A DNA stretch of 64,000 nt from a virus (IMGVR_UViG_3300047557_002497:1414-65413); one strand, 5' to 3'; counted from the stretch's first letter, positions 13,240-36,875 are shown. Made by a program: numbers and translations. Notes: a model not told the origin generated them from the letters alone.

Positions 13240-13415
13240 ATCTACATCCTTTGTTGTGATGCATGACTGCATCTCGCAGCGTCCGTGACCGGGCGCTGAA
13301 AGAAGTGGTCATGAGTATTTCTTGTCTGGGTGTTTGATGTCTCTTGCCCAAACCCTATTCTGACGATGATAAAGCACACCATCAGGAATCGATTGATTCT
13401 GCTTTCGCTTTTTCA

Positions 13416-18405: not shown

Positions 18406-18897
18406 TTATGGAAGGTAACTTCCAGGCTCAAATATTGCTTGAACAGGACCTCTCTTTTGATTTTGATATTTCCCATCATAAGCAACAGAAGCTGGCTTAT
18501 CAAGAAAATGGAAAATGATCTGAGCTATTGGATCGCCACGTCTCAATTTCAACATTTGATTTTGATTGTGATTCACCAATTCGAGAGTCAGGTATCCACA
18601 CCATCCAGGTTCTATGACTGTATTCTGAACAGTCAGTCCTTTCCTTGCCCAAGTAGACTTATCATGGACAACTCCGAGGAGATTTTTTGGCATCGTGAAA
18701 TGTTCAATCGTTGAAGCTAGAGCAAATGCTCCAGGCATCATGATGATATGGTCTGTTGATCCATCTTCATCAAATTCAACTGTCACATCATAACCAGCAG
18801 GTCCAACTCCATAGGTCAAACCATTGTGTCTTGTTCTTTCATTGAAAGGTGTGAAGATGTTCAGTTCTTTGATTGTTTGTCCACTTGCGATCATCAC
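18406..18897 (-). CDS. dcd: dCTP deaminase (trimeric dUTPase fold)
   Basis: PAGYD, DKSTWARKG, TVIEPGWCGYLTLEL, YDGKYQNQ. Confidence 0.85.
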   Translation of the reverse strand: MMIASGQTIKELNIFTPFNERTRHNGLTYGVGPAGYDVTVEFDEDGSTDHIIMMPGAFALASTIEHFTMPKNLLGVVHDKSTWARKGLTVQNTVIEPGWCGYLTLELVNHNQNQMLKLRRGDPIAQIIFHFLDKPASVAYDGKYQNQKRGPVQAIFEPGSYLP

Positions 18898-19076
18898 ACA
18901 ATTCCTTTTTCTTCAGCGAGAGATTGTTCCATAGTGACCATCTTGGTGTCTTCATCCCACTCGTGTTGGGATTTAGGTATCCAGACATTCTCTTTGTCTT
19001 CATCAAATTTGAAAAGACGAGCTTTGTCTGTTTCATGAACAAGTATGGCGATGATATCAACGAGTGTGCTTCTCAT
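18894..19076 (-). CDS. hypothetical protein
   Basis: ETDKA...WIPKSQ; ATGA-coupled. Confidence 0.6.
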   Translation of the reverse strand: MRSTLVDIIAILVHETDKARLFKFDEDKENVWIPKSQHEWDEDTKMVTMEQSLAEEKGIV

Positions 19077-19426
19077 GATTCACCTTCAAAATGTCCGAGA
19101 TTCACTTGAGGCCATTCTTCTTTATGTTGAAACGATCCATCTTTGGCAATTTCCCATGAACGTTTCTTGTTGACTTCAAATTTGTCTCTTACAGCTTGTT
19201 CAAGATCAACTTCAAGAAGACCACATATTTGAAGAAGAAAGAACATGACATCAGCACATTCTTCTCCAACTTTTTTCGGATCATAATTGTTGAAATTGTT
19301 ATAAAGATCAGAGAGAAGCTCTGAATACTCTTTGTTTCCACGAATTCCCAATGCAAGAGGATGAGGTTCTTCGAAGGTCTCTTGACCCCAATTCGTGATC
19401 TCAGCTTGAAGTTCAGACAACGGCAT
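19073..19426 (-). CDS. MazG-like all-alpha dNTP pyrophosphohydrolase
   Basis: WGQETF...KEYSEL...GEECADV...KFEVNKKRSW. Confidence 0.75.
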   Translation of the reverse strand: MPLSELQAEITNWGQETFEEPHPLALGIRGNKEYSELLSDLYNNFNNYDPKKVGEECADVMFFLLQICGLLEVDLEQAVRDKFEVNKKRSWEIAKDGSFQHKEEWPQVNLGHFEGES

Positions 19427-19428
19427 TT

Positions 19429-20127
19429 CTATCTCCTATATGATGCGAGTGTTTGCCACAGATTTTCTTGCATTTTAGGTTCACGAGTGCATTCCCAACC
19501 AGATTCAATCAGGAAGTGATGAGCTTTCTCAACATATTCAACTCCGAAACCATTGATATGGTATTCAAGAGCAAATTCTTTCAATCCAGTTTTGTGGAGT
19601 TCTGGAATGAGATTGTATTCTGCACCTTCACAGTCAATCTTTGCAACTGTGATATCATGATCTCCACTGAACAAATCAAGAACTGAAATTGTATCAACTT
19701 CGAAGCTGATTCTTCCTCTTCTACTATATGTAGACGAGTTCCCAGGATTTCTTCCGGTCGGACTTATGAACAGAGGAATTCTGCCCGCTGGCTTCGGAGT
19801 CAATGCTGCATTAATAAGAGTGACACCTGTATCTTCTTGGGTATTCAAGATCAGCATATTGAAATTGTTTGGTTCAGGTTCGATAGATACAATGGATTTG
19901 CATCCCTGATCTAGAGCCCAACGAGAGAAGCATCCAATGTTCGCTCCAATATCAAGAACAACTCTGTCTTTGACATCAAGAGTTCCATATGAACGGACAA
20001 TCTCTTTAGATACATATTCATCATATGTATCTTTCCTGCACCACACAGGCTTCTGGAAATTCTTAGGTTGGAATTTGTAAATTTCTCGTTCTTCAAATCC
20101 AACGATAGTCTCAACACCATATTTCAT
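19429..20127 (-). CDS. FkbM-family SAM-dependent methyltransferase
   Basis: VLDIGANIG, IEPEPNN, KIDCEGAE, LEYH. Confidence 0.9.
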   Translation of the reverse strand: MKYGVETIVGFEEREIYKFQPKNFQKPVWCRKDTYDEYVSKEIVRSYGTLDVKDRVVLDIGANIGCFSRWALDQGCKSIVSIEPEPNNFNMLILNTQEDTGVTLINAALTPKPAGRIPLFISPTGRNPGNSSTYSRRGRISFEVDTISVLDLFSGDHDITVAKIDCEGAEYNLIPELHKTGLKEFALEYHINGFGVEYVEKAHHFLIESGWECTREPKMQENLWQTLASYRR

Positions 20128-20405
20128 AGTTTCTCCCACTTCTTGAACTTGATGTTTCTTCTTGTGATTGACAAAGCTTCAAGTTGAATTTCGAATGGAA
20201 CTTCTGGTTCTTCTTTTACAATGCTAAATCTTCTTTGTTCTAATCTATGATAAGAACGAGTTTCATCAATCATGAATTTATGTCTTTTGCTATCTCTAGA
20301 CATTACATACATTGCATCTAGATAGAGATATTCACCATCTCTTAACCAGAATTCCCATCTAACTTTATTGAGATCATCAATCTCTTTGGTAATTTCTATT
20401 CTCAT
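20124..20405 (-). CDS. hypothetical protein
   Basis: Coupled ORF. Confidence 0.6.
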   Translation of the reverse strand: MRIEITKEIDDLNKVRWEFWLRDGEYLYLDAMYVMSRDSKRHKFMIDETRSYHRLEQRRFSIVKEEPEVPFEIQLEALSITRRNIKFKKWEKL

Positions 20406-20647
20406 GATGGTATCAGAATTTGCTGCAGAGTGACTTCATCGAGTTCATTCCAATCACATGGAGTATAATCAGATTCTTCCCAGCAGATTTGGCAAACTGG
20501 AACTGGTTTTGCAGAAGAAAGATCTTCTACTCTTGACCATCTCACATCAGCCAGTGCATGACCATTGCATTCTTCATCGCAGCTATTGCAAACAACGACG
20601 AGATGGCTGTTCAGGATATATGTCATACCTTGCTTATCTCTCCCCAT
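20402..20647 (-). CDS. small Cys-rich protein
   Basis: CNSC...CQIC; coupled. Confidence 0.5.
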   Translation of the reverse strand: MGRDKQGMTYILNSHLVVVCNSCDEECNGHALADVRWSRVEDLSSAKPVPVCQICWEESDYTPCDWNELDEVTLQQILIPS

Positions 20648-22704
20648 GAAGGACCAACTTCTGTATCAACCTTAAACGGAACCCAGATGGTTCCAGAGAA
20701 CTTCTCGACTGCACAGTCTTTCATTATACGACCAACTTCTTTAGCTTCTTCAACAGAACTAAAAGAGCCATCCATTTCATCATGAACCTGAAGTTGAATG
20801 AAGTAACCTGCATCATCAAGCTCACACAAGGCCAATTTAGTCTGGTCTGCGCTGCTGCCTTGTATAACACGGTTGAGAGCTTTGTGAGTATAGTCATAAG
20901 TTCCATCTTCACGACGTTCAAAATTCAAACGTCTATTAAAGATTGTTCTGACATATCCAACGCTATTTGCTCTATCAGATGCAGCTTTTGATAGCTTACG
21001 AACATACGGAACTTCTCTATCAAACTTATCAAGAATTTCCTGACCATGCTCACCAGCAACTTCTCTGATGTAACCTTTCTGCATTTCCATACGATAAGCC
21101 ATAGCAGAAGCTTGATCTTCAAAATATTCTGTGTGTTTCAAATCACCGTAACCGACAGTATACATCCATCTAGTCGGTTGCTTGATATCTCTACACAGTT
21201 TGGGTCCACCTTCACCATAGCAAAGACCAAGGAAAATGTTCTTATCGTAACCTCTTTCAACTTTGAATTCTTTGGGAGATTCTTTCATCGCCCAATCAGT
21301 CCATTTATCACCTCTGATGAGACGAACCATCATCTCATGGTTATCAGTATCAGGATTTTCTTGATAACGCCTTGCAGCTTCTCTAGCACGAGGTAGATCC
21401 ATGACGGCCGCGAAGTGAGTTGTCCATCTTGGCTCTTGTTGGGAATAGTCGTTGCATCCCCAGATTTGTCCATGTTCCGGGATAAAGATCTTTCTCCATT
21501 CACCAGCAATCTCAGGGTCTCTATCTGGAGAGGGCTGCTGCTGCATATTAGGATCTGTTGCAGATAGTCGTCCGTATCTAACGCCCTTCTGATCACCTTC
21601 CTCGTCCTCTTGTGCTATTTGACGGAACGTGCAATGTAGCCTTCCGTTGACCGAATGCTTTCTTATACTTTGGGCGAATGTAGTTCTAAGTTTATTGACT
21701 TTACGAGCTCTGAGAATTGCTTCACAAACAGGATCATCATTTCCACCCAAAAGGAAGCGATCAATCTGTGGAGCTCCAGTGCTAGTCTTTTTAAGACGAA
21801 CTCCTATTGCTTCAAGTGCTGGAGCAAGAGCATCAGGTTTCCAAACTTCACCGAAGCCGATCTTAACTCCAGTAGTTCTCTTGATAAAATCAAGAGCTTT
21901 CATCTCTTCTGTTTCAGCCCAATTTTCAATTTGTTGAAGTTTATCAAAATTGATAAGAACACCACGTCTTCTCATACGAACAAGCGCAGGAAGGGTTCGT
22001 GTCTCTAGGTCCCATATTTCTCTAAGACCTTCTTTATCAATTTTCTCTTCTTGCTTTTTCAATATTTCTAACGGAGAGACAGAGTCTTGCTCTGCATATT
22101 GTCCAACAAATCTAGCTGGTAATCTCCACAATCCTTTCTTAAAATCAAGACCGAAAGACTTTGCAGCTTCTATTAGAAGAATTTCATGTTTCGCTTCTAT
22201 ACCATATCTCTCACCAATTGCTTTTAGAGAATAGTTCATATGAAGTTCATATATTAATGGATCAGCAATTTGGATATCTCTGAATTTAGCGTTTTTATTC
22301 CATTCAAAATTATCAGAGTAGCCATAATCCATGTCATAAGCCAAATTGGCTCCAACATATTCGCCTTCAAAATGTTTAATCTGTTCACTAAGATATCTCT
22401 TGACTTGAACTTCATCAAGATTATCACCACCTTCATGCCCATAGGGCAGATAGAATGCCGGACCTCCTTCTATTGAAAAAGACCAGCCAACAGTTTTCCC
22501 GTCTCTGAGCGAACCTGATCCCATTTTATTACCAAGAGAAGGATCTTTGGTTTCACAATCAATCGCTATTCTTTTAGCATCTTTCCAGGAAGGAAGATCA
22601 GAAAGTGATGGTGGCCTCCAGGTAGATTCTGGAGTAAAGAAACTCATTTGCAGAGAGCCACCTAGATTAGGATTTCCCTTCTTTCTAATCATTCTGATAT
22701 CCAA
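20623..22704 (-). CDS. polA: family A DNA polymerase with 3'-5' exonuclease
   Basis: IDCET exo I; DYSQQEPR motif A; KNIFLGLCYG motif B; QVHDE motif C. Confidence 0.95.
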   Translation of the reverse strand: MDIRMIRKKGNPNLGGSLQMSFFTPESTWRPPSLSDLPSWKDAKRIAIDCETKDPSLGNKMGSGSLRDGKTVGWSFSIEGGPAFYLPYGHEGGDNLDEVQVKRYLSEQIKHFEGEYVGANLAYDMDYGYSDNFEWNKNAKFRDIQIADPLIYELHMNYSLKAIGERYGIEAKHEILLIEAAKSFGLDFKKGLWRLPARFVGQYAEQDSVSPLEILKKQEEKIDKEGLREIWDLETRTLPALVRMRRRGVLINFDKLQQIENWAETEEMKALDFIKRTTGVKIGFGEVWKPDALAPALEAIGVRLKKTSTGAPQIDRFLLGGNDDPVCEAILRARKVNKLRTTFAQSIRKHSVNGRLHCTFRQIAQEDEEGDQKGVRYGRLSATDPNMQQQPSPDRDPEIAGEWRKIFIPEHGQIWGCNDYSQQEPRWTTHFAAVMDLPRAREAARRYQENPDTDNHEMMVRLIRGDKWTDWAMKESPKEFKVERGYDKNIFLGLCYGEGGPKLCRDIKQPTRWMYTVGYGDLKHTEYFEDQASAMAYRMEMQKGYIREVAGEHGQEILDKFDREVPYVRKLSKAASDRANSVGYVRTIFNRRLNFERREDGTYDYTHKALNRVIQGSSADQTKLALCELDDAGYFIQLQVHDEMDGSFSSVEEAKEVGRIMKDCAVEKFSGTIWVPFKVDTEVGPSWGEISKV

Positions 22705-23344
22705 ATGGCGATGGATGATCTGAGCTCATCTTGCATTCATCAGTAGCAAATTCCATCATTTTCCTTCTTGGAAGACCACAGCCACATGGACAAGGACCGA
22801 ATGGTATTTCAGCGACTGTTTTGGACGTGTTGGTTGGTTGCCCCTGCCCTATGGTGCCTTGCGCCCCGCTAGGCGCTGCCCCTGCGCTGCCCTGTTTGCC
22901 TGTAGCCGGTAGGGTGGCACCGGGCAAGGGGTTTACCCCATCCAGTGCCCCGCTTACAGTCATGATGAGTGTATTCAAAACTGCCTTCGCTTCATAGACT
23001 TCATTGAGAGAAACAAATCTGCACATAGAATACATGAACTCTCGTTCTAGTCTTCTTTCAGCAGTTCCCAAGCCATTTGAATTTACGAAATTCAAAGTCA
23101 ATTGAAAGTCAAAATTGTTTCTTGATCTGCATTCATTTGGGATAGTTATGTGACTAGTTGCAATGATCTTATCGATGTAGGTCATCGCTTTCTTTAGATC
23201 TTCAATCCCATTCTTTTTCCACCAACGAGAAACATACTTCGTCGCACACCCTGCAAGATATCCCATACCGAGATCAGTTACCCAATCCCAATGCTGATAT
23301 ACAGACTGATAGTGATCTCCGCCTTCTTGCTTCACGTATTCCAT
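22685..23344 (-). CDS. DUF3310/SaV-like protein (putative nucleotide kinase) with low-complexity tail
   Basis: GGDHY...KYVSRW.KKNGIEDLKKA.Y. Confidence 0.75.
   Translation of the reverse strand: MEYVKQEGGDHYQSVYQHWDWVTDLGMGYLAGCATKYVSRWWKKNGIEDLKKAMTYIDKIIATSHITIPNECRSRNNFDFQLTLNFVNSNGLGTAERRLEREFMYSMCRFVSLNEVYEAKAVLNTLIMTVSGALDGVNPLPGATLPATGKQGSAGAAPSGAQGTIGQGQPTNTSKTVAEIPFGPCPCGCGLPRRKMMEFATDECKMSSDHPSPFGYQND
22813..22960. repeat. 148-bp three-box element with TC/GA-free run, copy 1
   Basis: Box 1 22813-22834; hairpin CCGGT-AGGGTGGC-ACCGG 22906-22923; box 3 CCCGCTTACAGT 22949-22960; no TC or GA in 22825-22941. Confidence 0.85.
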
Positions 23345-23904
23345 TATTCACCTTTATCAGAAAGAGTTTCCCAGCCATCGCTTTCAACTTGAAAGAAGAA
23401 GTCAACTATCTTTGGATGATAGTGATGTTTTCTATCTCTTATGTGTTTAGAGACAGCGAGCAATTTTGTTTCCATGGATAGATTTCCAAGCATTTGTTCA
23501 TCTCTGCAGTAGAGATAGAACTCAATCATGTCAAGACCACGAAACCACAAAAGATCTTCTTCACTTAGATCTGATTCAGGATCTTCTCCGAATACAAGAA
23601 CTTGCAGTTCACTCTCAGTTTCTTTGAGATATGTTGCATCAATGAAACCGATATGCTTTGCTGGATGAGGAATATCACCAACAATCCTTTCAGGAACGTC
23701 ATGCTGGAGAACAGCCCAGATGAGTTCTTTCGGAGCATCAGGATATAGAATTCTCAAGAGACAGAGCATATTGAAAGTGTGCCCAGAGACAGGATATTCT
23801 CTAATCCCTCTTTGAGCATGACATCTCAGAACATTGCCACCTTCTCTCGCAAATTTAACTTTCTGAACATTCAAATCTCTTTCAGATCTGAAACCATAAG
23901 TCAT
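23344..23904 (-). CDS. HD-domain phosphohydrolase (YfbR-like 5'-deoxynucleotidase)
   Basis: R.H...VSGH...QHDVPERIVGDIP...D. Confidence 0.8.
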   Translation of the reverse strand: MTYGFRSERDLNVQKVKFAREGGNVLRCHAQRGIREYPVSGHTFNMLCLLRILYPDAPKELIWAVLQHDVPERIVGDIPHPAKHIGFIDATYLKETESELQVLVFGEDPESDLSEEDLLWFRGLDMIEFYLYCRDEQMLGNLSMETKLLAVSKHIRDRKHHYHPKIVDFFFQVESDGWETLSDKGE

Positions 23905-24911
23905 TTCATTCTCCTTTGAAGCCATTCAACACAAGCAAGTCTCCAATCAGTTGCAGCGATCTTTTCAGCAAACACGATTGCCTTCTCAAGATGATACGGA
24001 TCATCTTTATCTTTCCATGCCATCCAAGAACTGTAGACTGGAGATGCAACTTTCTTGAAGAACGGATCTTTAAACCCAATGACAGGACCCTCAGACATGA
24101 ACATCGAGAGATCAGTAAACCACTCTTCTATTGGGCCATTGACGATTGGGAAGGGTTCTACTGCACCTGTCGCATACGGATCCATACCAGTAGAATGCAT
24201 GGAGAGTTCTTGGACTTTCTCCAAAGTATTGAGGTAAGCATGGAAATTCGTGCTGATCTGATAATAGGAGCCTACTTGAACTCCGATCCAAGATGCCATC
24301 ACTTCTTGCAAGAAAGAGAAATGAACAGCATTCGCTCCATACGCTCCCCAGATCATGTCATTGCTTCTGTTGAACACAGTCATGTCAAGATATCCATATG
24401 GATTTATCCTGAAAGTAGCAATGAGATTGCAAGGGAAGTCTTTGCCATCTCTACCAAGATCACAAGAAGCATCCCACATTTGAAGAACAGTTCTTCTATC
24501 ATCAGGATTTTGTTTTAGAAGTTTTGCAATAGTTGCGAGTTGATCAATTACAAAAGATCCGCCTTCATCATATGCTGGAAAAGCATTTCTCCAACGATAT
24601 CCATATGCACCATGGAATGTAACTCCATTATCACTATAATTCGCGATATTAGAAGAAAAACGAGAAATCCATTCAACATCATTTCTTCCAGAGATCATCC
24701 ACAAAGATTCCATAAGATGGAAAAAAGGATTTGCATCTCTTTCAGGAAAGAAGATCACTCTTTCTGTAGGATCTTTATATTTCGTTGTTACTGGATCAGG
24801 GAAAACCCTAACTGGTCCATTTCTTGAATCTCTCAGAACTCCATCAGATTCAAGCTTTCTAAGCCCAATGATAAGAGCATCATTGACGTTGTTAGCTTCT
24901 ATGATGATCAT
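23901..24911 (-). CDS. thymidylate-synthase-family dUMP hydroxymethylase
   Basis: DFPCN catalytic Cys; RSNDMIWGAYGAN with dUMP-type Asn; NFHAY. Confidence 0.8.
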   Translation of the reverse strand: MIIIEANNVNDALIIGLRKLESDGVLRDSRNGPVRVFPDPVTTKYKDPTERVIFFPERDANPFFHLMESLWMISGRNDVEWISRFSSNIANYSDNGVTFHGAYGYRWRNAFPAYDEGGSFVIDQLATIAKLLKQNPDDRRTVLQMWDASCDLGRDGKDFPCNLIATFRINPYGYLDMTVFNRSNDMIWGAYGANAVHFSFLQEVMASWIGVQVGSYYQISTNFHAYLNTLEKVQELSMHSTGMDPYATGAVEPFPIVNGPIEEWFTDLSMFMSEGPVIGFKDPFFKKVASPVYSSWMAWKDKDDPYHLEKAIVFAEKIAATDWRLACVEWLQRRMK

Positions 24912-26191
24912 TTTACTATCCCATAATGGTTGAAGAGAAGTGAATCGCAGTTGTCCATAACTTGATGATCAGGGAATCCATATTCCACGTCATCAAGTTC
25001 TCCATTAACCAGATCAAGCAACCTTTTCGCAACAGTCGCTCTTTCAAAGTTTTTGATGATCAGAGCATTTTCTTCAAGATATGGTCTTGCTTGTTGAATT
25101 GACATATTGCCAGCATCATCAATTATCTTTCCATAAGTGTATGGATCAGTTGCTTCACCTAGATCGATGTAATGAACTCCAGGTTTAAAGAAATCACTTC
25201 CCATTCCTCTTTGCTGAGCAACAGGAATTGCACCATGGATCATCGCATCAACAACAACGCGATTCCAATGTCCACCAATCTTAGAATATTTCTTAGACCA
25301 AGATGGATCTACCAGAACACGAGCTTTTTCGAGCCACGAGTGAACTTCACTGGTAGACCAATATTCATGATGTGTCATTCCATTTGCAAGAGCAGCTTCC
25401 CAGAACGTCATGCCTGAGAACCAATGGTCATTCACTCCATGATAATACTGAGGCTTGCATTTGTCTTCTGAAGTCATATACTGATATTCAATTCCCTTAC
25501 CAGCTACTTCACGAAGAGAATTTCCATCATAGTCTTTCATATATGCGATTGATTCAATCAACTCGTGAGCATGTTTCCATGCTTTGAAAGTTTGCATATT
25601 CACAAACCCTGGAAGTTTTTGGTCCCAGTCAGTTGTTGGAAAATATATCTCTTGTGGATTGAGGATCAAAGCTCTTGGTGGAGTTAAATGATCTGATCCA
25701 TTCAAAGCACAAGAATGGACACATGCTATTGCAGAAAGCTTCTCTTCAATATGTAAAAGATGAGGCGCACCATCACGAGAATTTCCATCATGTATGAATG
25801 CGAGTTGCTTGACGTGTGGCTTCAAATTATAAAGAAGAGGCCACTTGTTATTTCCTAAATGGAGTTTGTTTTTAGGAGGAACTGGAACAGTCCAAATAAC
25901 AAGATCATAAGAATTCAAAACTTCAATTGTCGTTCTTAGACCAAGAGATGTTTTATAAGGAAGACGGTTTTGAAGAGGAAAACTCCATCCGCATCCTTGT
26001 CCAAATCTTATTCCACTTGGGCCAATTTCGTTTGCATTCTGCTTATCGAGAGCATGAACTCTTTCAGAGTAGCACATTTCGTAGAAATGAACAGTGTGTC
26101 CTAAGTCTTTCAAACCACCAATCAATTGTTCAGTATGATTGATGATTCCTCCAAGATCCATGCAGGAATGGAGAGCGATACAAATTTTCAT
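24908..26191 (-). CDS. GT-B fold (GT4-like) glycosyltransferase
   Basis: N-terminal GGIINHTEQLIGGLKDLGHTV; C-terminal ARVLVDPS...RVVVDAMIHGAIPVA. Confidence 0.75.
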   Translation of the reverse strand: MKICIALHSCMDLGGIINHTEQLIGGLKDLGHTVHFYEMCYSERVHALDKQNANEIGPSGIRFGQGCGWSFPLQNRLPYKTSLGLRTTIEVLNSYDLVIWTVPVPPKNKLHLGNNKWPLLYNLKPHVKQLAFIHDGNSRDGAPHLLHIEEKLSAIACVHSCALNGSDHLTPPRALILNPQEIYFPTTDWDQKLPGFVNMQTFKAWKHAHELIESIAYMKDYDGNSLREVAGKGIEYQYMTSEDKCKPQYYHGVNDHWFSGMTFWEAALANGMTHHEYWSTSEVHSWLEKARVLVDPSWSKKYSKIGGHWNRVVVDAMIHGAIPVAQQRGMGSDFFKPGVHYIDLGEATDPYTYGKIIDDAGNMSIQQARPYLEENALIIKNFERATVAKRLLDLVNGELDDVEYGFPDHQVMDNCDSLLFNHYGIVK

Positions 26192-26214
26192 GATGTCTTC
26201 CCCCGTTATGATTT

Positions 26215-26243
26215 AGCATAAACCAGCTAGGGGCAAAAGACAA
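26215..26243 (-). promoter_or_regulatory. promoter TTGTCT-N17-TATGCT
   Basis: Shares TTGTCTTTTGCC with the 18376-18404 promoter. Confidence 0.55.
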
Positions 26244-26248
26244 TTTTG

Positions 26249-26449
26249 TTATTTCTTTTTCTTTACAAAAAGCCTATAGATAGTAACAAATGGAAGAGCA
26301 ATTGGAAATGTAAACATTCCTATAATGATTGTTTTTCTATCATATTGTTTTGCTTTTTCTGGATCATTCTTAATGACAAATTCATAAGCATAGACAAGAA
26401 TCATGTCTACGATAAGAAAATACAGGCAGAAATAGAACCACCAACTCAT
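26249..26449 (-). CDS. small membrane protein
   Basis: Two hydrophobic segments. Confidence 0.6.
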   Translation of the reverse strand: MSWWFYFCLYFLIVDMILVYAYEFVIKNDPEKAKQYDRKTIIIGMFTFPIALPFVTIYRLFVKKKK

Positions 26450-27363
26450 TTTGGGAAATATCTAGAACGAGGTTTTCCTTGTCCTAAACGAACACGCTCA
26501 TACTTATCAAACTCACACAAACTGAATTGAATATCAGTTGGTGAGAGATAAGGAAATCCATCAGGAAGATAGTTGCTTTGTTCTTCAAACAATGTCATAA
26601 GAATTGACATCGCTTTACTGTTTGACATCTTCTTGGAGATATCAGCTAGTTCATCAAGAATTCGTGCAGCACCTCGTAGAGCTCCCGGTCCGATAGGCGT
26701 CCAGTCCCACCAGTCTTTTGGGAATGTAAATCTTCCATCAGGAGTTTCATCAGTAACTGCCCAAAAGGGACAATAAGTCGTGTCAAGAAGAATCTCCTTG
26801 GTCATGAATCCAGTTCCACCGAATCCATTGATCTTCATCATCTCTTCAGCTGTCAGTCTCCAGGATTGAGTTTTTGAAGCAATATCAACCAGACGACCAG
26901 CTTTTTCATGCAGAGCTCTAAGGAAGTAGTCTACTACAACCTCTTCTTTGGGCTCTGAGATTCCTTGGTTGGTAATCACGTATGCTCCAGTGAACACACG
27001 TAGATTTTCAGCAAATCTTTCTTTAGCTACAGATTTCACAAGTTCAAAATCATAAGCATCAAAAGTCTGCCAACCAACAGCTTCTGCGAATTCCCATGTT
27101 CCAAAATATCTGAAGGTTGCACAATTCATGAGAATTGTTTTCTTATCATCAGATTGAATCTTGCTGTAAAAAGATTCACGAAGTTTTGAAGACGTCTTGT
27201 CATGATGACGCCTAACATTGGTGAATTTATACATTGAGAGAATAGGATCAAAAGTCCACTTATTCTCGTCAAACCCAATGGAAGTATCCGCCTCCTTCCG
27301 AAGGCGGATATTCTCGCGCTCAATGATATAGTTAAAGAACGCGCTTGCTCTGGAAAGAAACAT
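26446..27363 (-). CDS. aGPT-Pplase1-type / 5-hmdU DNA kinase helical-domain protein
   Basis: ERENIR...WTFDPIL..YKFTNVRR..D, FTGAY, GPGALRG, LCEFDKY.R. Confidence 0.8.
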   Translation of the reverse strand: MFLSRASAFFNYIIERENIRLRKEADTSIGFDENKWTFDPILSMYKFTNVRRHHDKTSSKLRESFYSKIQSDDKKTILMNCATFRYFGTWEFAEAVGWQTFDAYDFELVKSVAKERFAENLRVFTGAYVITNQGISEPKEEVVVDYFLRALHEKAGRLVDIASKTQSWRLTAEEMMKINGFGGTGFMTKEILLDTTYCPFWAVTDETPDGRFTFPKDWWDWTPIGPGALRGAARILDELADISKKMSNSKAMSILMTLFEEQSNYLPDGFPYLSPTDIQFSLCEFDKYERVRLGQGKPRSRYFPK

Positions 27364-28103
27364 TACGAAGCCGTGGCTTCATCAGCAGGTTTCGCAACAG
27401 CGGCATCGGCTTCTGCTTTCTTCGCAGCAGCAGCATCAGCTTTTGCTTTCTCAGCAGCAGCTTTCTTTTCAGCAGCCTCAGCCTTGCGCTTTTCAGCAGC
27501 TTCCTTGTTGGCAGCTTTCTTCGCAGCAGCTTCTTCAGCTTTGGTGATTTTCGCCAGATCAGGGTCAGGAACGCCTTTCTTGGTGAAGTAGGCAGCACGA
27601 CGTTCTTTGTATTCCTCGTCGGTCGGCTGATGGACTTTCATCAGACCTTTTTCTTCCCAATTGTAGATGTCCCAAGCCAGCGTGCCTTCGCCCTCGATTG
27701 CATCGATGATTAACATGCCATCTTTGTAATTCGGCCAGCGATGAGCACGATCTTCTTTGCCAGTGTGCTGAGCAATGATCTCAACTTTGGCAAACATCTT
27801 GCGAGTCGGGCGTTTCACGAACTGAGATTCAGCAGGCTTTGCCAGACCACGAACTTTCGGCTCTTTCGGCTCTTTGGTTTTCTTGACTTCAGCTTGAGGA
27901 GCCGGGTCTTTCGCGCTTTCTTCGGCATACTTGGTCAGTGCCTTGAGGGTCTGAGCAACAGCCGTGTCATGGTTCGGGAAAGAGCGAATTGCGCTTGCAC
28001 CAAGATTTGATGCCACAAGATTGCGAAGTTCGAGAAGCTGATCAATCCCGAGCGCCTTGAGATCTGCTTCGTCATATTCCTGTTCAAGGAACTTGATCTT
28101 CAT
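27363..28103 (-). CDS. hypothetical protein with Ala/Lys/Glu-rich tail
   Basis: Own promoter and GGAGA RBS; AEEAAAKKAANKEAAEK tail. Confidence 0.75.
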   Translation of the reverse strand: MKIKFLEQEYDEADLKALGIDQLLELRNLVASNLGASAIRSFPNHDTAVAQTLKALTKYAEESAKDPAPQAEVKKTKEPKEPKVRGLAKPAESQFVKRPTRKMFAKVEIIAQHTGKEDRAHRWPNYKDGMLIIDAIEGEGTLAWDIYNWEEKGLMKVHQPTDEEYKERRAAYFTKKGVPDPDLAKITKAEEAAAKKAANKEAAEKRKAEAAEKKAAAEKAKADAAAAKKAEADAAVAKPADEATAS

Positions 28104-28207: not shown

Positions 28208-30088
28208 TTAATCTGCACAGGCACCAGTCTTACGACCAAACTCATCAAGAGAGCAAGCGCCGGAGAACCCATCTTCCTCTTGCAGCATAGTCAGTTCTTG
28301 TATGGCTTTGACTTCAGCTTTGACTTCTTCAATTGCTTTGATTGGTTCATCATAGTTTCCATTCGGTCGATAAGTCGTGCAACCCTTGGCTCCTTTATCA
28401 TGAGCCAACAGATACATATTCTTGAAGCTATCAAAAGGAAAGTCAGTCGGAACATTGCAAGTCTTACTGACAGCACTATCAACGTTCTTTTGAGCAGTGC
28501 ATAGAACATTGATATGTTCTTCAGCAGTGATTCCACCGTTCTGAACAGTTCTTCCACGAACATCCAGATAAGTGACACCATAGTCAGGAATAATGACCTT
28601 GATCTTGCCTTCTTTCATTATCACTGAACGTTCTTGTTCATAAGCAATGACTGGCTCAATACCAGACGAAACATTGTCTGCATACAGAGAAATTGTTCCT
28701 GTCGGAGCAATAGAAGTCAGATGACTATTTCTGATTCCATACTTCTTGATCATTTCTTGAGTTTCTGGCCAGAGAGTCTTGATGAACTGTCCTTTCAGAT
28801 AGTGCTCTGCACTATAGAGCGGAAAGCTTCCTTTTTCTTTAGAAAGCATTGCAGAAGCTTGATAGCATTTGTTTGCGATAAATGCCAACAGTCTGTCTTG
28901 GAAATTGACAAAAGCTTCTGTTCCATATGGGAAACCAAGAGCTTCCAAAGCATTCGCCAAACCAGTAACACCGAGACCCATACGTCTCTTTCTTTGGGCC
29001 TCCAACTTCTGCTCTGGAAGTGGATATCTGCTGCGATCAATCACATTGTCCATTCCACGGACTACATGGGGAATGTCTTTCTCAAGTTGATCCCAATTGA
29101 AAGCATAGACTCGTTTCCCATCTTTATCAACTCCGAGCTGATAAAGATATTTCACAACGTTGAATGACCCAAGAAGACAAGCACCATATGGAGGAAGAGG
29201 CTGCTCACCACAAGGATTGGTTGCTGCAATCTTCTCACAATACCACAGGTTGTTCATTCTGTTGATTGTATCAATGAACAGAACTCCAGGCTCTGCCCAA
29301 TCATAAGTGCCACGCATGATCATGTCCCAGAGAGCGAGTGCATCAACTTCTCTGTATTTCTGATCACCGAATTTGAGTGTGAAGGGTTTGCCAGAAGCAA
29401 CACAATCCATGAAATCGTCTGTGATTGCAACCGAAGTATTGAAACCACGAAGAGGACGAAAATCCCAGGGAATGCTTTCATCAGTAACTTGTTTTGCACG
29501 AATGAAAGTTTCAATATCAGGATGATCTACTCGAAGAACGAGCATCTGTGCTCCACGACGATTTCCTGCTGATGATGTAGCTTTGCAGACAGCATCATAG
29601 ATTGGAGCAAATGCTAGAGGTCCATCTGTGAGTGACTGAACACCTCGGATCATATCACCTTTTGGTCGTAACGTGCTGATGTCATATCCAACACCGCCAC
29701 CTTGTCTCATCGTGATTGCAGCGAGTTTTGCTACGTCCATAATGGATTGAGAATTGAAATCCCAGCCATTACCTTTCTCAATCAACTTCTCTTCTTCTGT
29801 CGGACCATCTGTGAAACTGTCGTGAATTGTCGGCATCACGAAGCAATTGTAGAGTGTCACATTCTTGAGGCTACCTGCTCCAGCTATGACTCTACCGGGC
29901 GGTGAATATCTCTGTTCAAGAAGAGTATCTCGAAATGCCATATAGTGTTCGTGATTGTCTTGAAGAAAACCAGCGACACGATTCATCGCTTCTCTGTGAT
30001 CCTCATTCTGTCCACGATACTTCTCTGCTCCAATTGCGTCACAATGTGGATTCTGCGGTCCGACCATTTTCTTAACCCTCTGGTTCAT
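28208..30088 (-). CDS. nrdJ: class II (B12-dependent) ribonucleotide reductase
   Basis: NCFV, GGGVG, TNPCGEQPL, APTGTIS; C-terminal Cys pair; no nrdB nearby. Confidence 0.9.
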   Translation of the reverse strand: MNQRVKKMVGPQNPHCDAIGAEKYRGQNEDHREAMNRVAGFLQDNHEHYMAFRDTLLEQRYSPPGRVIAGAGSLKNVTLYNCFVMPTIHDSFTDGPTEEEKLIEKGNGWDFNSQSIMDVAKLAAITMRQGGGVGYDISTLRPKGDMIRGVQSLTDGPLAFAPIYDAVCKATSSAGNRRGAQMLVLRVDHPDIETFIRAKQVTDESIPWDFRPLRGFNTSVAITDDFMDCVASGKPFTLKFGDQKYREVDALALWDMIMRGTYDWAEPGVLFIDTINRMNNLWYCEKIAATNPCGEQPLPPYGACLLGSFNVVKYLYQLGVDKDGKRVYAFNWDQLEKDIPHVVRGMDNVIDRSRYPLPEQKLEAQRKRRMGLGVTGLANALEALGFPYGTEAFVNFQDRLLAFIANKCYQASAMLSKEKGSFPLYSAEHYLKGQFIKTLWPETQEMIKKYGIRNSHLTSIAPTGTISLYADNVSSGIEPVIAYEQERSVIMKEGKIKVIIPDYGVTYLDVRGRTVQNGGITAEEHINVLCTAQKNVDSAVSKTCNVPTDFPFDSFKNMYLLAHDKGAKGCTTYRPNGNYDEPIKAIEEVKAEVKAIQELTMLQEEDGFSGACSLDEFGRKTGACAD

Positions 30089-30090: not shown

Positions 30091-31329
30091 TTACATCCTT
30101 ATGATGGTCACGTTTTCAGCGGCACGAGTAATCGCAGTGTATAACCAGCGATGTCTCTGCTCCTTAAAAACGAAAGACTCATCGAAGACACATACACTAT
30201 CCCACTGAGAACCTTGGGATTTGTGAACTGTCAGCGCATATCCATAATCAAATTCTTGGGCGTTTGTTCTAAGCCAGTATTGTTTCTCTAGGTCTTTTGA
30301 TCTACCTAGGAAGTGTTGTTCAAGAGCAGCAACCTCAATGCTGAAAATGCTGTCATCTGGATGAACGGAAAGATGAACTTTTCCATCCATTACTCCACGA
30401 ACATCACTTACATTGAAGATTGCGCCATTTAGCAAGCCTAACTCAGCATTGTTCTTTAGACAAACCAAACGGTCACCGATCACAGGATAAGCATCATCGA
30501 TACCTTTGATTCTACGAATTTTTGTGTTCGCAGAATATCTTGTGTCGTTCTTACCAACTAGGATTTGATCAAAGGATAAAATCCTTTCCTCATCCAGTTT
30601 TGTTCCTTTTGGGAGAACATGACAGTTTTCACCATAGTCTCCTAGCTTAAGATAATTTCCATTTCTGACTTCTGTAGCCATTCTCAGAATTGGTGACTCA
30701 GCAGCCTGACGATGAACTTCGTCAAGCATGAAATCTGGAGCAACGTTCTCTGTGAAGAAGCCAGTGCTCGCTACAGGTGGAAGTTGAGCAGGATCACCCA
30801 ATACAAGGACAGGAGTTCCAAAGTAGAGAAGATCAGCACCCATCTCATGTCCAACCATAGAGCATTCATCAATTATGATTAGAGCACTATCTTTGACGAT
30901 GCTATCTTCATTCCTGGTGAACGTTGGTTGAGAAACATTCTTCGTCTCTAGATTGATTGCTTTCCTGAGCTCATCAACCTTTGGGTGTTTGTCGATGAAT
31001 CCTTGTCCATATTCTGCTAATTCTTTTAACAGATTAAGCAGATCGTTTTCAAGTTGCTTCAATCTAGAAGTGCTTTTGTCTCTGGTATGATAAATCAATG
31101 AGTGAATCGTAGCAGCACCATCACATCCTTTTTTACGAAGAACATGAGCAGCTTTTCCTGTGTATGCTGCGAACAGAACGTCACCATCAATTCCCTCAGC
31201 TAAATGTTTAGCGAGAGTTGTTTTTCCAGTTCCAGCGAACCCAAATAAACGGAAGACCTGATTTGAGCTCGATTCATACCAATGCTTTACAGCGAGCAAA
31301 GCCTCGTCTTGTTGTTGTGAAAATTGCAT
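30091..31329 (-). CDS. Dda/RecD-like SF1B helicase
   Basis: GFAGTGKT, DECSM, GDPAQLPPV, YALTVHKSQGS, YTAITRA. Confidence 0.9.
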   Translation of the reverse strand: MQFSQQQDEALLAVKHWYESSSNQVFRLFGFAGTGKTTLAKHLAEGIDGDVLFAAYTGKAAHVLRKKGCDGAATIHSLIYHTRDKSTSRLKQLENDLLNLLKELAEYGQGFIDKHPKVDELRKAINLETKNVSQPTFTRNEDSIVKDSALIIIDECSMVGHEMGADLLYFGTPVLVLGDPAQLPPVASTGFFTENVAPDFMLDEVHRQAAESPILRMATEVRNGNYLKLGDYGENCHVLPKGTKLDEERILSFDQILVGKNDTRYSANTKIRRIKGIDDAYPVIGDRLVCLKNNAELGLLNGAIFNVSDVRGVMDGKVHLSVHPDDSIFSIEVAALEQHFLGRSKDLEKQYWLRTNAQEFDYGYALTVHKSQGSQWDSVCVFDESFVFKEQRHRWLYTAITRAAENVTIIRM

Positions 31330-31349
31330 GTCATCTCCGAAGACAGTTA

Positions 31350-31371
31350 GGGCGGGACATTACTCCCGCCC
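31350..31371 (-). terminator. GC hairpin GGGCGGGA-(N6)-TCCCGCCC
   Basis: Intergenic inverted repeat after 31380..32240; weak U tract. Confidence 0.4.
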
Positions 31372-31379
31372 GGTTGAAA

Positions 31380-32240
31380 TCAGAACGGGATTTCGTCTTC
31401 GTTCTTCGTCGGAGCAGGACCACTGGTTGAACGACGTGCTTGTTCAACTTCAGTCTCTTCACCAGTGTAGTCAGGTTTCGCAAGACCACCTTTGATCATG
31501 TCTCTGAATTTCAGAGCCTCGCTCAGCAGCATCTCACCTTCTGGTGTTGCAGGATTGATCAGAGATTCGCGCCAAGAATCTTTCAGTGGAGCAACTCTGT
31601 AGTTGTAAGAAGTTCCACTCTCTCTCTTTTCCATTGCAGTCGAGATCTTTGCTCTGTTTGCATAGATCGGTGGAGCACCTTTCAATCCATACATCGCACT
31701 GATGAAGTCTTTGTAGACTTTGATCTTCGTAGAAGTGAAGCTCAGAACACAGAAGCCTTCAATCGATTCACCAGCTTGGTCAAGAATGAGACAGTAGATG
31801 TAGAAAGTCTCGACCAGTTCATTTCCAGCAGGAGATTTGAAACTGATGCGCTTGTTTTCTGCATCTTTCGGAGGAATTCTTGAGCCACCATTGGCCTTGA
31901 TCACGTCAAGGAAAATGTCAGATTCAAGACTGTGACGTCCAGCGATACCACCGCCCTTGCTTCTGGGAATCCATTCCACAACAGCTTCTTCACGATGCAC
32001 CGGAATAATGACAACCGGCTGTGAAAGAATTTCACGTGTCACAGAATTCAGGAGATCACCAGCGCGACAACCTTCGATTTGATTTTCGACGATCTCAGGA
32101 GATGTCGGTTGGAGAACGTTGATGAAAGGAATTGAGAGGTCATTGATACCAATGCCTTCAAATCCCTCATGAGCATGATCCCCATAGTCATAGGCTTGGA
32201 TCTGGGCGGTCTCTTTTTTCGCAACTTCTGTGCCAGCCAT
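31380..32240 (-). CDS. putative ssDNA-binding/annealing protein
   Basis: DLSIPFINVLQ..SP N-terminus; acidic NEDEIPF tail; replication context. Confidence 0.6.
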   Translation of the reverse strand: MAGTEVAKKETAQIQAYDYGDHAHEGFEGIGINDLSIPFINVLQPTSPEIVENQIEGCRAGDLLNSVTREILSQPVVIIPVHREEAVVEWIPRSKGGGIAGRHSLESDIFLDVIKANGGSRIPPKDAENKRISFKSPAGNELVETFYIYCLILDQAGESIEGFCVLSFTSTKIKVYKDFISAMYGLKGAPPIYANRAKISTAMEKRESGTSYNYRVAPLKDSWRESLINPATPEGEMLLSEALKFRDMIKGGLAKPDYTGEETEVEQARRSTSGPAPTKNEDEIPF

Positions 32241-32310
32241 GATGGCTCCTTTCGGCTATCGTTGATTGGAATGCTTCCAAGCTCACCACTATCCTAGGTG
32301 ACAGGATGGA

Positions 32311-32868
32311 TCATTTCTTTTCCTTGATCTTTGCGATACGCTGAGGATACACGCCAAAGAGATCACGAGGAATGTCGTCGCCTTCTTTGATACGCTCTTT
32401 CACCCAGGAAAGCATTGTCATGTGATGAACATCAAGGTCTTGTTTGATGACGACAGGATTTTCGAAGTTGATCTGTTGAATTTTCTCAACAAGAGTATCA
32501 GAACCTTCTTTGTCACCACGAGAGAATTCAACAACAACTGCTCTCTTGACAATAGAAGAATATCCGTGTTCATCGAGCCATTTGATTGCTGGAGCTTTTC
32601 TTTCTCCACCAATGCTTGCACGAATTTCTTCTTTGACGGTGATTTCTCTTCCATCACCAATATCGAAGGTTCCGTCCATACCTTCTGTCAGTTTTGGGAT
32701 CCTAATCTCAACGAGGTCTCTTCGGAGATTACTCAATCTTTCAAGTTCTGTGTTTGTATTTTCAATATCAGCATCGATTTTGATTAGCTCATCTGCCATC
32801 TTTTGCAGTGAACGCTTGAATTCTGAGTCTGGCTCTTCTCTGAACTGTGCATATGGATCTGACATCAT
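32311..32868 (-). CDS. phage replication-module protein
   Basis: AIKWLDEHG...VHHMTMLSWVKE; GGAG RBS. Confidence 0.65.
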   Translation of the reverse strand: MMSDPYAQFREEPDSEFKRSLQKMADELIKIDADIENTNTELERLSNLRRDLVEIRIPKLTEGMDGTFDIGDGREITVKEEIRASIGGERKAPAIKWLDEHGYSSIVKRAVVVEFSRGDKEGSDTLVEKIQQINFENPVVIKQDLDVHHMTMLSWVKERIKEGDDIPRDLFGVYPQRIAKIKEKK

Positions 32869-32918
32869 TTGCTCCTGCTAGACACAATAAATACCATATG
32901 TTGTGTTCAAAGACAAAT

Positions 32919-34732: not shown

Positions 34733-34762
34733 ATTTTCTCCTTTTCTACATTCTTATAGCCC

Positions 34763-36861: not shown

Positions 36862-36875
36862 GGATTAGTTTCCTA

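Follow-up and report, generated by a model that had tools for sequence, protein, structure and literature searches.

Our analysis points to a kinase-free, sugar-type hypermodification of thymidine in an uncultured phage, in which thymidine would be replaced by 5-hydroxymethyldeoxyuridine (5-hmdU) and the latter turned into a glycosylated, FkbM-methylated, base-J-like nucleotide. We consider this pathway probable on the combined evidence of homology, predicted fold, a natural gene fusion, gene context and co-occurrence. The window, that is, the whole stretch of DNA analysed, covers 64.0 of the 65.4 kb of a complete DTR phage genome, and its RNR-to-primase replication module is syntenic with that of Pseudomonas phage M6. 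All cassette genes named below were placed on the minus strand by ORF calling and by Pfam and PHROG matches, and they were compared across 47 related records or loci, 11 of which are near-complete (at least 90% complete). The genes listed in the first-pass annotation, namely dCTP deaminase, FkbM, polA, DUF3310, HD, a thymidylate synthase (TS) homologue, a GT-B glycosyltransferase and aGPT-Pplase1/HMUDK_hel, were recovered by these ORF, Pfam and PHROG analyses, the glycosyltransferase (GT) by its fold.

The TS homologue (23901..24911; PF00303, 82.5 bits; PHROG 5131, 1.5e-127) matches M6 gp58 and the homologue of Bordetella phage FP1 with 54% identity across 99% of its length. It contains the motif RSNDMIWGAYGAN. 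In the alignment the final Asn of this motif, N193, falls opposite the Asn of a solved thymidylate synthase and opposite the Asp of the CMP hydroxymethylase MilA, and C161 of the protein falls on the catalytic Cys. The dUMP-type Asn read earlier from the sequence is thus a uracil-type Asn by alignment. The protein is the orthologue of the M6-type dUMP hydroxymethyltransferase and a putative producer of 5-hmdUMP from dUMP; the available text of PMC5889632 pairs this enzyme with 5-hmdU chemistry in M6-type phages.

By homology to the M6-type phages, the neighbouring genes would serve the supply and incorporation of the modified nucleotide. The dCTP deaminase (18406..18897; PF22769, 76.7 bits; PHROG 1663, 1.4e-51), a putative supplier of deoxyuridine nucleotides, would provide dUMP, possibly together with a small MazG-like or dNTP pyrophosphohydrolase-like protein (19073..19426) that may convert dUTP to dUMP. 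For the latter, a weak call, the gene previously named a MazG-like pyrophosphatase is present, with matches to PHROG 9147 (7e-15) and PHROG 3301 ‘pyrophosphatase’ (9e-7), but its PF04447 score of 20.1 bits lies under the cut-off of 23. Some relatives carry an M6 gp65-like dCMP deaminase in place of the dCTP deaminase. The 5-hmdUMP would then be raised to 5-hmdUTP by host kinases and the DUF3310 protein (22685..23344; PF11753, 29.4 bits), a homologue of M6 gp61 and putative hmdUMP kinase that matches PHROG 236 ‘nucleotide kinase’ (1.4e-14). An HD-domain, 5'-deoxynucleotidase-like hydrolase (23344..23925; PF13023, 25.1 bits; 31% identity to M6 gp59), whose gene is kept after the TS gene in related loci, would trim the competing thymidine nucleotides or adjust the dNTP pool in some other way. 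Finally, the phage family A DNA polymerase, polA (20623..22704; PF00476, 130 bits; 48% identity to M6 gp62), would incorporate 5-hmdU for T; the proposed pathway requires that it accept 5-hmdUTP.

The enzymes that act downstream of 5-hmdU in M6 were not recognised on first inspection, and profile and sequence searches agree. For the 5-hmdU DNA kinase (PF18748), a search of the complete genome up to E 1 gave no match; neither the amino acid:DNA transferase (PF18724, clade 2 aGPT-Pplase) nor radical SAM (PF04055) matched anywhere in the genome, and tblastn of the genome with M6 gp51–gp54 and gp56 returned nothing. Among the 47 related records PF18748 was found in none, including none of the 11 near-complete ones, and both positive controls, M6 and FP1, were detected; phmmer with M6 gp51 against the ORFs of the 47 loci likewise gave no match. 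The M6/YuA, PaMx11 and FP1 clusters (Lee et al. 2018 and 2021; PMC5889632, PMC8989533) have the backbone and the RNR-to-primase gene order in common with the present genome, and M6-type clusters also share the dUMP hydroxymethyltransferase orthologue (54%), the HD hydrolase, DUF3310, polA and an HMUDK_hel in the slot between RNR and TS. Unlike them, the present genome lacks the 5-hmdU DNA kinase, the amino-acid:DNA transferase, the PLP and radical SAM enzymes and Nmad5; in cassettes of the present type the place of these M6 genes is taken by a GT-B gene, with or without FkbM, and here by this GT-B gene and HMUDK_hel. Being anchored on the kinase, the published survey would have overlooked a kinase-free type.

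The GT (24908..26191, 427 aa) was modelled by AF2 with a pLDDT of 91.2 and a pTM of 0.91, and the model contains the two Rossmann-like domains of the GT-B fold. The protein has no Pfam or PHROG match of its own, and Pfam GT models including PF00534 fail at E 0.01 and at E 1; among its homologues, PF00534 scores above the gathering score in P0030 (31.3 vs 26.4 bits) and just below it in P0008 (26.1). Compared with the PDB, the model found T4 DNA alpha-glucosyltransferase (AGT) first by Foldseek (E 5e-12) and again at top rank by VIA (Z 26.1, rmsd 3.7, 339 aligned). The lead of T4 AGT over TarM, HepE and PimA is only about 1 Z unit, at 12–13% identity to the GT, and lying this close to GT4 enzymes with lipid, teichoic acid and small-molecule acceptors it amounts to a structural tie. 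A second look by VIA at 998 chains selected by Foldseek gave Z of at least 8 in 823, the best 50 all being GT-B enzymes, and the GT sequence gave only chance rows and no AGT match against PDB chains at E up to 10. The family is discrete, with 279 representatives among 1.84 billion and no merging with general GT4. The calculated pI of 6.2 is not basic, which counts against a DNA-acting enzyme.

Gene context ties the GT to the TS homologue. In the window the two genes share the nucleotides ATGA, in which the stop of the GT gene and the start of the TS gene overlap, and the junction measures at most 9 nt in 32 of 34 loci, which bears out the translational coupling proposed earlier. The gene order HMUDK_hel-GT-TS occurs in 31 of the 47 loci, and three further loci break off at a contig end next to the GT. 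Together with the fold and the fusion, this context leads us to propose that, once the DNA has been replicated, the GT-B takes the sugar of a host NDP-sugar and attaches it to the 5-hydroxymethyl group of 5-hydroxymethyluracil (hmU) in phage DNA; no NDP-sugar genes were found in this genome.

A link between the GT and hydroxymethyl-pyrimidine DNA is supported by fusion, slot replacement and TET-coupled distant homologues, as well as by fold. The natural fusion protein P0297 (829 aa) joins a GT of this family (residues 8–445) to PF18723, the HMUDK_hel domain (residues 510–790, 288 bits); its ORF is uninterrupted in two IMG/VR contigs and one further contig, and its gene lies 4 nt from a TS homologue, directly behind a cytidylyltransferase gene. 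In L059, whose backbone is related to that of the window (TS 46%, hel 37%, FkbM 39% and polA 31% identity), a TET-associated glycosyltransferase (TAGT, PF20691), which is JGT-like, sits between HMUDK_hel and TS, and TAGT, FkbM, HMUDK_hel and TS also occur together in L062, L063 and L091. Upstream of distant GT homologues, a Tet_JBP dioxygenase gene abuts or overlaps the GT in four of the six scanned (L039, L041, L042, L046); two distant homologues stand in contexts uninformative on DNA bases, beside a Gp23 capsid gene (L043) and beside radical SAM/SPASM and TnpB genes (L037). In this genome neither PF20691 nor Tet_JBP has a match. The glycosylation of hmU suggested in the first-pass annotation is supported by all the computational tests, namely TS orthology, lack of the kinase route, fusion, TAGT slot swap, TET-coupled homologues and fold.

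HMUDK_hel (26446..27363; PF18723, 106.9 bits, cut-off 25), formerly aGPT-Pplase clade 1, is present in 33 of the 47 related records and in all 11 near-complete ones, and is 24% identical to M6 gp55. Its AF2 model (pLDDT 89) gave nothing by Foldseek at E 0.001 or better. In a wide VIA search PaMx11 gp46 (8z2m) and two DUF2419 proteins lead the ranking at Z 9.8, and the rest of the top 23 matches are 20 DNA glycosylases; the Z values span 9.8 to 5.1 and lie below the caution level of the tool for helical proteins. We propose that HMUDK_hel has a helix-hairpin-helix (HhH), DNA-glycosylase-like fold and serves the GT as a partner that recognises hmU in DNA or flips the base, and the product would be a base-J-like nucleotide. 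According to the consulted text of PMC8989533, the M6 reaction in lysates ran without gp55; since this HMUDK_hel homologue was dispensable there, the partner role is drawn from fusion and synteny. Upstream, with a 1-nt overlap with the HMUDK_hel start, lies a gene for a 246-aa protein with an Ala/Lys-rich C-terminal tail (27363..28103), which has no Pfam or PHROG match and retrieved only viral hypothetical proteins from the protein atlas. Its homologues stand upstream of HMUDK_hel in 27 of the 47 loci, with the 1-nt overlap in 15 of the 27 pairs, and are missing from TAGT-type cassettes. A 66-aa hydrophobic ORF of no family, called between HMUDK_hel and GT (26249..26449), is not conserved (no phmmer match in the 47 loci, where ORFs from 60 aa upwards were compared) and may not be a gene.

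The FkbM-family SAM methyltransferase (19429..20139; PF05050, 40.5 bits vs a cut-off of 22.7) retains the SAM-binding glycine-rich motif: D59, G61, G65, E83 and the KIDCEGAE block vary little or not at all among 27 relatives. It occurs in 21 of the 47 related records, and in 6 of the 11 near-complete ones, being absent from the other 5. In L026, L029, L031, L032 and L064 it sits between HMUDK_hel and GT; in the window 4.8 kb separate it from the GT, and polA stands in between. The first-pass annotation had suggested looking for co-occurrence of GT and FkbM with TS-type hydroxymethylase genes, and a glycosyltransferase was indeed present in all 10 loci that combine FkbM with TS and HMUDK_hel (6 GT-B, 4 TAGT). 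Among 49 other FkbM-bearing viral records, 12 contain TAGT, in every case within about 2 kb of FkbM by coordinate arithmetic, and all five FkbM-bearing records with ParB near FkbM contain a glycosyltransferase, two of them with Tet_JBP over the cut-off. In the sampled hydroxymethyl-pyrimidine cassettes FkbM is thus always accompanied by a glycosyltransferase and GT often occurs without FkbM, a pattern that fits sugar tailoring. On this co-occurrence, we propose that FkbM is an optional module that would add an O-methyl group to the sugar of the modified base in this phage and about half of its relatives; the pairing with DNA-type glycosyltransferases is as expected of the sugar-tailoring enzyme envisaged earlier.

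FkbM may instead act in parallel to the GT, methylating the hydroxymethyl group of some hmU to give 5-methoxymethyluracil, or another substrate. PolA and two small ORFs separate FkbM from GT in the window, and phage MW202657.1 (GenBank) encodes a ‘pyrimidine hmase’, a DNA polymerase and FkbM with no recognisable relative of the window GT. We nevertheless consider this unlikely, because in the sample a glycosyltransferase accompanies FkbM in all 10 TS-type loci and all five ParB records, because the GT often occurs without FkbM, because a conserved pair of enzymes competing for one hydroxyl would be odd, and because another GT may hide among the two unannotated proteins of MW202657.1. Harder to reconcile with the data is the view that the DNA contains plain 5-hmdU or T and that GT and FkbM modify virion proteins or a host envelope glycan, which we judge very improbable. 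Most GT4-like folds do have non-DNA acceptors, FkbM and GT are often combined in polysaccharide synthesis, BFVD holds FkbM-GT fusion proteins of uncultured phages, and the distant homologue L043 adjoins a major capsid gene. Against these stand the coupling of the GT and TS genes, seen in 32 of 34 loci, the fusion of the GT in one lineage to the HMUDK_hel domain with its predicted DNA-glycosylase-like fold, its replacement by a DNA-type TAGT in another, the TET/JBP dioxygenases coupled to its distant homologues, and a family of just 279 representatives that does not merge with general GT4.

The conserved features of HMUDK_hel raise the further question of whether, like the clade 2 amino-acid:DNA transferases, it is itself a Cys-dependent group-transfer enzyme acting at the C5-methylene. 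If so, the base finally formed would be something other than a simple O-glycoside of hmU, and the GT might attach a sugar or sugar-phosphate for displacement in a later step, or add a sugar to a group put on first by HMUDK_hel. Cys283 in the motif LCEFDKYERV is invariant in all 23 aligned relatives and shared with M6 gp55 despite 24% overall identity, and so strong a motif looks like an active site rather than part of a passive adaptor. The model also matches the solved transferase PaMx11 gp46, in which Cys247 attacks C6 (PMC11472151, in the part available), as well as it matches anything in the PDB (Z 9.8, rmsd 4.7, 222 aligned), but this Z value is under the safe level of the tool for helical proteins. 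Moreover, there is no kinase to make a leaving group, hhalign found no sequence relation of HMUDK_hel to M6 gp51, so the equivalence of the two cysteines is only putative, and a JGT-like TAGT in the slot of the GT-B fits plain glycosylation of a hydroxyl. We therefore give this reading a low probability, slightly lower than that of FkbM acting elsewhere than on the sugar, and favor glycosylation of hmU by the GT.

Base J, known from trypanosomes and other kinetoplastids, is an hmU of DNA whose hydroxymethyl group bears a sugar, and its synthesis depends on JBP and JGT. The predicted product belongs to the same class, and TAGT (PF20691) genes occupy the GT slot in the sister cassettes L059, L062, L063 and L091. 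In base J, however, hmU arises through a dioxygenase, whereas here it would be made before replication by the TS homologue, and the GT-B fold differs from the TAGT fold of the base J/TET-associated glycosyltransferase family. T4 AGT acts on 5-hmC and needs no HhH partner, and in both respects it differs from what is proposed for the window GT, to which it is 12–13% identical. The two are alike in their GT-B fold, and the target of AGT (PDB 1xv5, 1y6f, 1ya6, 1y8z) is a 5-hydroxymethyl-pyrimidine in duplex DNA.

Other sugar-bearing phage DNAs were also compared. The Pyle et al. preprint (10.1101/2023.12.21.572611), in its available text, reports an enzyme trio for heptosylated 5hmC, which resembles the gene set of the fusion-bearing locus L132: one protein with matches to PHROG ‘phosphoheptose isomerase’ and weak APH/RIO-like matches, a cytidylyltransferase and GT-B. 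The 5mYOX/TET-glycosyltransferase pathways are similar in that Tet_JBP genes precede distant homologues of the window GT, and the same text gives a bulk figure of about 28% for the GT-B pathways that have a thymidylate synthase homologue nearby. Both this preprint and O'Toole et al. 2026 (PMC13229309) characterise cytosine products and the oxidation of thymine; the accessible portions of both, supplementary tables aside (which may list such contigs), contain no characterised sugar on hmU and no HMUDK_hel as GT partner. Bacillus phage SP-15 and Cobetia phage Carin-5 also have a sugar-bearing thymine replacement, glycosylated dihydroxypentyluracil (PMC12686479), but they differ in being myoviruses with a pentyl linker, phospho-sugars, another gene set and no HMUDK_hel context; an SP-15 glycosyltransferase ranks fourth among the nearest viral structural matches of the window GT. 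Our literature search returned no report of a sugar-tagged hmU DNA base in a phage, nor of the product of this cassette.

By analogy with other hypermodified phage DNAs, the modified DNA would likely be shielded from host nucleases. We tentatively suggest, as a possibility less probable than the pathway itself, that HMUDK_hel is a module that recognises hmU in DNA and presents the base to interchangeable ‘writers’, which would be a P-loop kinase in M6/ViI, the GT-B here (fused in one lineage) and TAGT in others, and that the phage DNA bears O-methylated glycosyl-hydroxymethyluracil. If this were true, a base-J-like nucleotide would be known for the first time from a virus, and a methylated sugar for the first time on DNA.

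The window (positions 1414-65413 of a 65,413-bp IMG/VR record) comes from a genome with direct terminal repeats and a completeness rating of 100%, and its minus strand holds nearly all of the genes. In the direction of transcription, Pfam and PHROG scans place an SNF2 helicase first, followed by Pam3 gp33/gp34-like proteins, a Dda-like helicase, and ribonucleotide reductase (RNR; 28208-30088). A 246-aa protein of no family (27363-28103, minus strand) lies between RNR and HMUDK_hel (PF18723; 26446-27363, minus strand), and a 66-aa hydrophobic ORF lies between HMUDK_hel and the 427-aa glycosyltransferase, GT (24908-26191, minus strand). The thymidylate synthase (TS) homologue (23901-24911, minus strand) comes next, and the GT stop codon overlaps its start as ATGA, in agreement with the translational coupling described in the first-pass annotation. 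The order continues with an HD hydrolase, a DUF3310 protein, polA, two small ORFs, the FkbM methyltransferase (PF05050; 19429-20139, minus strand), a weak MazG-like protein, dCTP deaminase (18406-18897, minus strand), a small helicase-like protein, an HTH protein, and primase. Every gene named in that annotation was present in the window; for the "MazG" call the gene stood, but its Pfam score was under the cut-off. The early region also encodes a TerB-domain protein (12805-13272, minus strand; 48.8 bits) and an Rv2179c-like 3'-5' exoribonuclease (2793-3455, minus strand; 95.8 bits).

The cultured phages M6 and FP1, which carry 5-hmdU-based thymidine hypermodification, have the same backbone as the window, and the TS homologue and polA match proteins of M6/YuA, PaMx11-type, and Bordetella FP1-type siphoviruses (approximately 48-54% identity). 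According to family searches and Table 1 of PMC8989533, the M6 interval between RNR and the TS homologue encodes gp51 (amino acid:DNA transferase, PF18724), gp52 (PLP enzyme), gp53 (radical SAM enzyme), gp54 (5-hmdU DNA kinase, PF18748), gp55 (HMUDK_hel, PF18723), and gp56 (Nmad5). In contrast, the window has a counterpart of gp55 only (24% identity). The first-pass annotation had recognized none of the M6-type downstream enzymes, and this was borne out: tblastn with the other M6 proteins of the interval found no match in the window, and profile searches of the whole genome for PF18748, PF18724, and radical SAM proteins were empty. The kinase search is considered valid since its control recovered the gene in both M6 and FP1 (2/2). 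Megablast found no DNA-level match to the cassette region in GenBank phages, tblastn found no match to GT among phages at 1e-3, and we found no cultured phage with a GT of this family in the records searched.

Scanning IMG/VR with the GT alignment yielded 47 related loci, in 31 of which the order HMUDK_hel-GT-TS is kept, usually with HD, DUF3310, and polA next; in three further loci, the contig end cuts beside GT. The genes at the GT-TS junction overlap by 4 nt in 13 loci and by 1 nt in 11, are 0-9 nt apart in eight, and lie further apart in one. The order differs in locus L034, and the junction is at most 9 nt in 32/34 overall. PF18723 was detected in 33/47 records and in all 11 with a completeness of 90% or more, while the kinase was found in none of the 47, including those 11. 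The 246-aa protein, which has an Ala/Lys-rich tail and is translationally coupled to HMUDK_hel, is kept in 27/47 loci and is missing from the cassettes with a TET-associated glycosyltransferase (TAGT, PF20691). It had no Pfam or PHROG match, and the protein atlas returned viral hypothetical proteins only. This protein may be part of the modification system, perhaps in DNA binding.

The TS homologue carries the motif quoted in the first-pass annotation. In HMMER alignments, its N193 aligns with the Asn residue in a thymidylate synthase of known structure (4h0r) and with the Asp residue in the CMP hydroxymethylase MilA (5b6d), and its C161 aligns with the catalytic Cys. We set aside the possibility that this protein is an ordinary thymidylate synthase, because it is an orthologue of the M6-type enzyme and its hmU-specific partners are constantly present. 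The dUMP supply differs among relatives, with dCTP deaminase in some and an M6 gp65-like dCMP deaminase in others, as expected if dUMP is the constant need.

Four lines of evidence, namely the fold, the discreteness of the family, a natural fusion, and the context of distant or replaced forms, point to GT as an enzyme that would act on DNA bases. GT itself had no Pfam or PHROG match; however, the GT-B call stands because some relatives carry PF00534 (P0030 scores 31.3 bits; cut-off, 26.4) and the AlphaFold model, based on an alignment of 50 relatives, is a confident GT-B fold (pLDDT 91.2). The best PDB match was T4 DNA alpha-glucosyltransferase, both with Foldseek (1y6f, E 5.4e-12) and with VIA-align (1ya6, Z 26.1, rmsd 3.7, 339 aligned). 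We regard this match only as a hint, since other glycosyltransferases are within the tie range of VIA-align: TarM (25.3), that of 6eji (24.9), HepE (24.5), and PimA (24.3). A word-index search returned 263 GT relatives at E 0.001 or better, mostly on contigs of approximately 60 kb. Searching the GT profile against 1.84 billion representatives retrieved just 279 proteins with E of 0.001 or lower, 143 of them at 1e-30; the family is discrete and does not merge with general GT4.

The exhaustive profile search also revealed a natural fusion, P0297 (829 aa), which joins a GT of this family (residues 8-445) to a PF18723 domain (residues 510-790; 288 bits); a second member of its cluster has 837 aa. 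The "longer" homologue search with HMUDK_hel returned nothing, which is weak evidence by the tool's own account. The fusion ORF is unbroken in two IMG/VR contigs (51 and 108 kb) that do not differ across the 18.5 kb compared, and ends 4 nt ahead of a TS homologue. Upstream of the fusion lies a cytidylyltransferase-like gene (PF01467, 46.5 bits), and ahead of that a 353-aa protein with a PHROG match to "phosphoheptose isomerase" and weak APH/RIO-like matches. These upstream genes resemble the trio of HAD/APH, cytidylyltransferase, and GT-B proteins that a preprint by Pyle et al. (10.1101/2023.12.21.572611) describes for heptosylated 5hmC. In this fusion locus (L132/L133; the 837-aa fusion is at 7977-10490, plus strand), a homing endonuclease gene lies between the TS and HD genes, and the phage uses a DNA polymerase III alpha-type polymerase.

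The context of distant and replaced forms is consistent with action on bases. In four of the six upstream neighbours scanned (L039, L041, L042, and L046), a GT homologue with 32-35% identity directly follows a Tet_JBP dioxygenase gene; the other two were a gene of no family (L037) and a Gp23 capsid gene (L043). On the 114-kb viral contig of L037 (11326-13484, plus strand), the genes after the distant GT homologue encode a radical SAM/SPASM protein and an IS605 OrfB/TnpB-like product, and a TS homologue is present elsewhere. L059 belongs to a 57.6-kb, 97%-complete relative (identities: TS 46%, HMUDK_hel 37%, FkbM 39%, polA 31%), in which TAGT occupies the slot between HMUDK_hel and TS in place of the GT-B enzyme. 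The same set of FkbM, TAGT, HMUDK_hel, and TS occurs in L062, L063, and L091. That a single slot can hold either of two glycosyltransferase folds argues for glycosylation of the hydroxymethyl base as its job. The GT donor would be a host NDP-sugar, since we found no sugar-nucleotide enzymes in ten further ORFs of the window and no PF01467 or PF00483 in the genome.

The current Pfam name of PF18723, the helical domain of 5-hmdU DNA kinase, together with the fusion to GT, suggests that HMUDK_hel serves various writer enzymes as a module for finding or flipping hmU; its M6 counterpart gp55 was not required in the M6 lysate reaction (PMC8989533). Less probably, HMUDK_hel may play a catalytic role. 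The 23 relatives have many invariant polar residues in common, including C283 of LCEFDKYERV, a motif also found in M6 gp55, and in the exhaustive VIA search with the HMUDK_hel model (pLDDT 89.3), the solved transferase PaMx11 gp46 (8z2m; Z 9.8, rmsd 4.7, 222 aligned) was joint first with DUF2419 (7ugk; Z 9.8, rmsd 5.2, 235 aligned). However, we do not treat Cys283 as the counterpart of the transferases' catalytic Cys, because hhalign found no relation between the HMUDK_hel alignment (clade 1) and M6 gp51 (clade 2). Next in the VIA ranking were 20 DNA glycosylases, a uniform list with Z scores that are modest for a helical protein; Foldseek returned nothing for the model at E 0.001 or better. 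The predicted complex of GT and HMUDK_hel scored 0.00 in two runs without controls, which counts neither for nor against binding.

FkbM repeatedly turns up with DNA-type glycosyltransferases. PF05050 was detected in 21/47 related records and 6/11 near-complete ones; its gene follows polA in most related loci, the window included, and lies between HMUDK_hel and GT in five (L026, L029, L031, L032, and L064). Among 80 viral loci kept from the 269 relatives found with the FkbM alignment, local HMMs detected TS and HMUDK_hel in 10, all of which also hold a glycosyltransferase (six GT-B, four TAGT). Contigs of the first (GT) set account for six of the 80 loci, including five of these 10. Outside this core group, TAGT occurs in 12/49 FkbM-bearing records, within approximately 2 kb of FkbM in 12/12 judging from coordinates; ParB is nearby in five of these, two of which have Tet_JBP over the cut-off. 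Since FkbM accompanies DNA-type glycosyltransferases whereas FkbM is often missing where GT is present, this one-sided pattern would fit a step that tailors the sugar. Against sugar tailoring, TAGT was not found in 37 of those 49 records, and the GenBank metagenomic siphovirus MW202657.1 has a pyrimidine hydroxymethylase and FkbM without a recognizable relative of GT. Its locus (31269-38999) encodes a "pyrimidine hmase", unannotated 415-aa and 365-aa proteins, and dCMP deaminase, and has FkbM directly after DNA polymerase, as in the window. By hhalign, the GT alignment showed no relation to these two proteins or to a 413-aa protein of locus L069, and none of the three had a PHROG match.

Among the FkbM loci L061 and L066 to L131, several records (G059, G061, G067, G071, and G086) have FkbM adjoining a strong TAGT (E 1e-34 to 1e-48), with no TS by local HMM and no Tet_JBP match. 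In two TAGT-type cassettes, Pyr_excise-like proteins (T4 endonuclease V family) are encoded directly upstream of FkbM (L062, 8130-9017; L063, 7966-8907, 31.3 bits; plus strand). The window has a weak relative far from the cassette (6578-7111, minus strand; 18.7 bits, under the cut-off).

To our knowledge, base J, the glycosylated form of hmU, has been described only in kinetoplastids and their relatives, and the characterized phage thymidine hypermodifications that derive from 5-hmdU all use a phosphorylated intermediate together with an amino acid or polyamine. A 2024 paper lists base J for kinetoplastids only. The main text of PMC8989533, which took the kinase as the anchor of its metavirome survey, does not contain the word "glycosyltransferase". 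The Pyle et al. preprint states in bulk that GT-B pathways often lie close to TS homologues, and O'Toole et al. (PMC13229309) report that phage T-dioxygenases co-occur with glycosyltransferases and O-methyltransferases. Within article texts, our literature searches found no characterized sugar on hmU in phage DNA and no role for HMUDK_hel with a GT; contigs of this type may be listed in the supplements to the Pyle and O'Toole papers.

The interpretation that the cassette places a sugar on hmU is supported to the extent that sequence, predicted structure, and comparative context allow, and the cassette would belong to phage thymidine hypermodification and DNA glycosylation, with a product that is predicted only. 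If true, the kinase-free sugar route would be a new branch of phage DNA chemistry, and it would assign a function to the clade 1 aGPT-Pplase/HMUDK_hel proteins, which published reconstitutions could do without. It would also provide new hmU-labelling enzymes for DNA, an hmU-specific GT and a sugar O-methyltransferase. Since the cassette is common, as the 263 GT relatives indicate, it may make many environmental phage genomes difficult to sequence, cut, or target.
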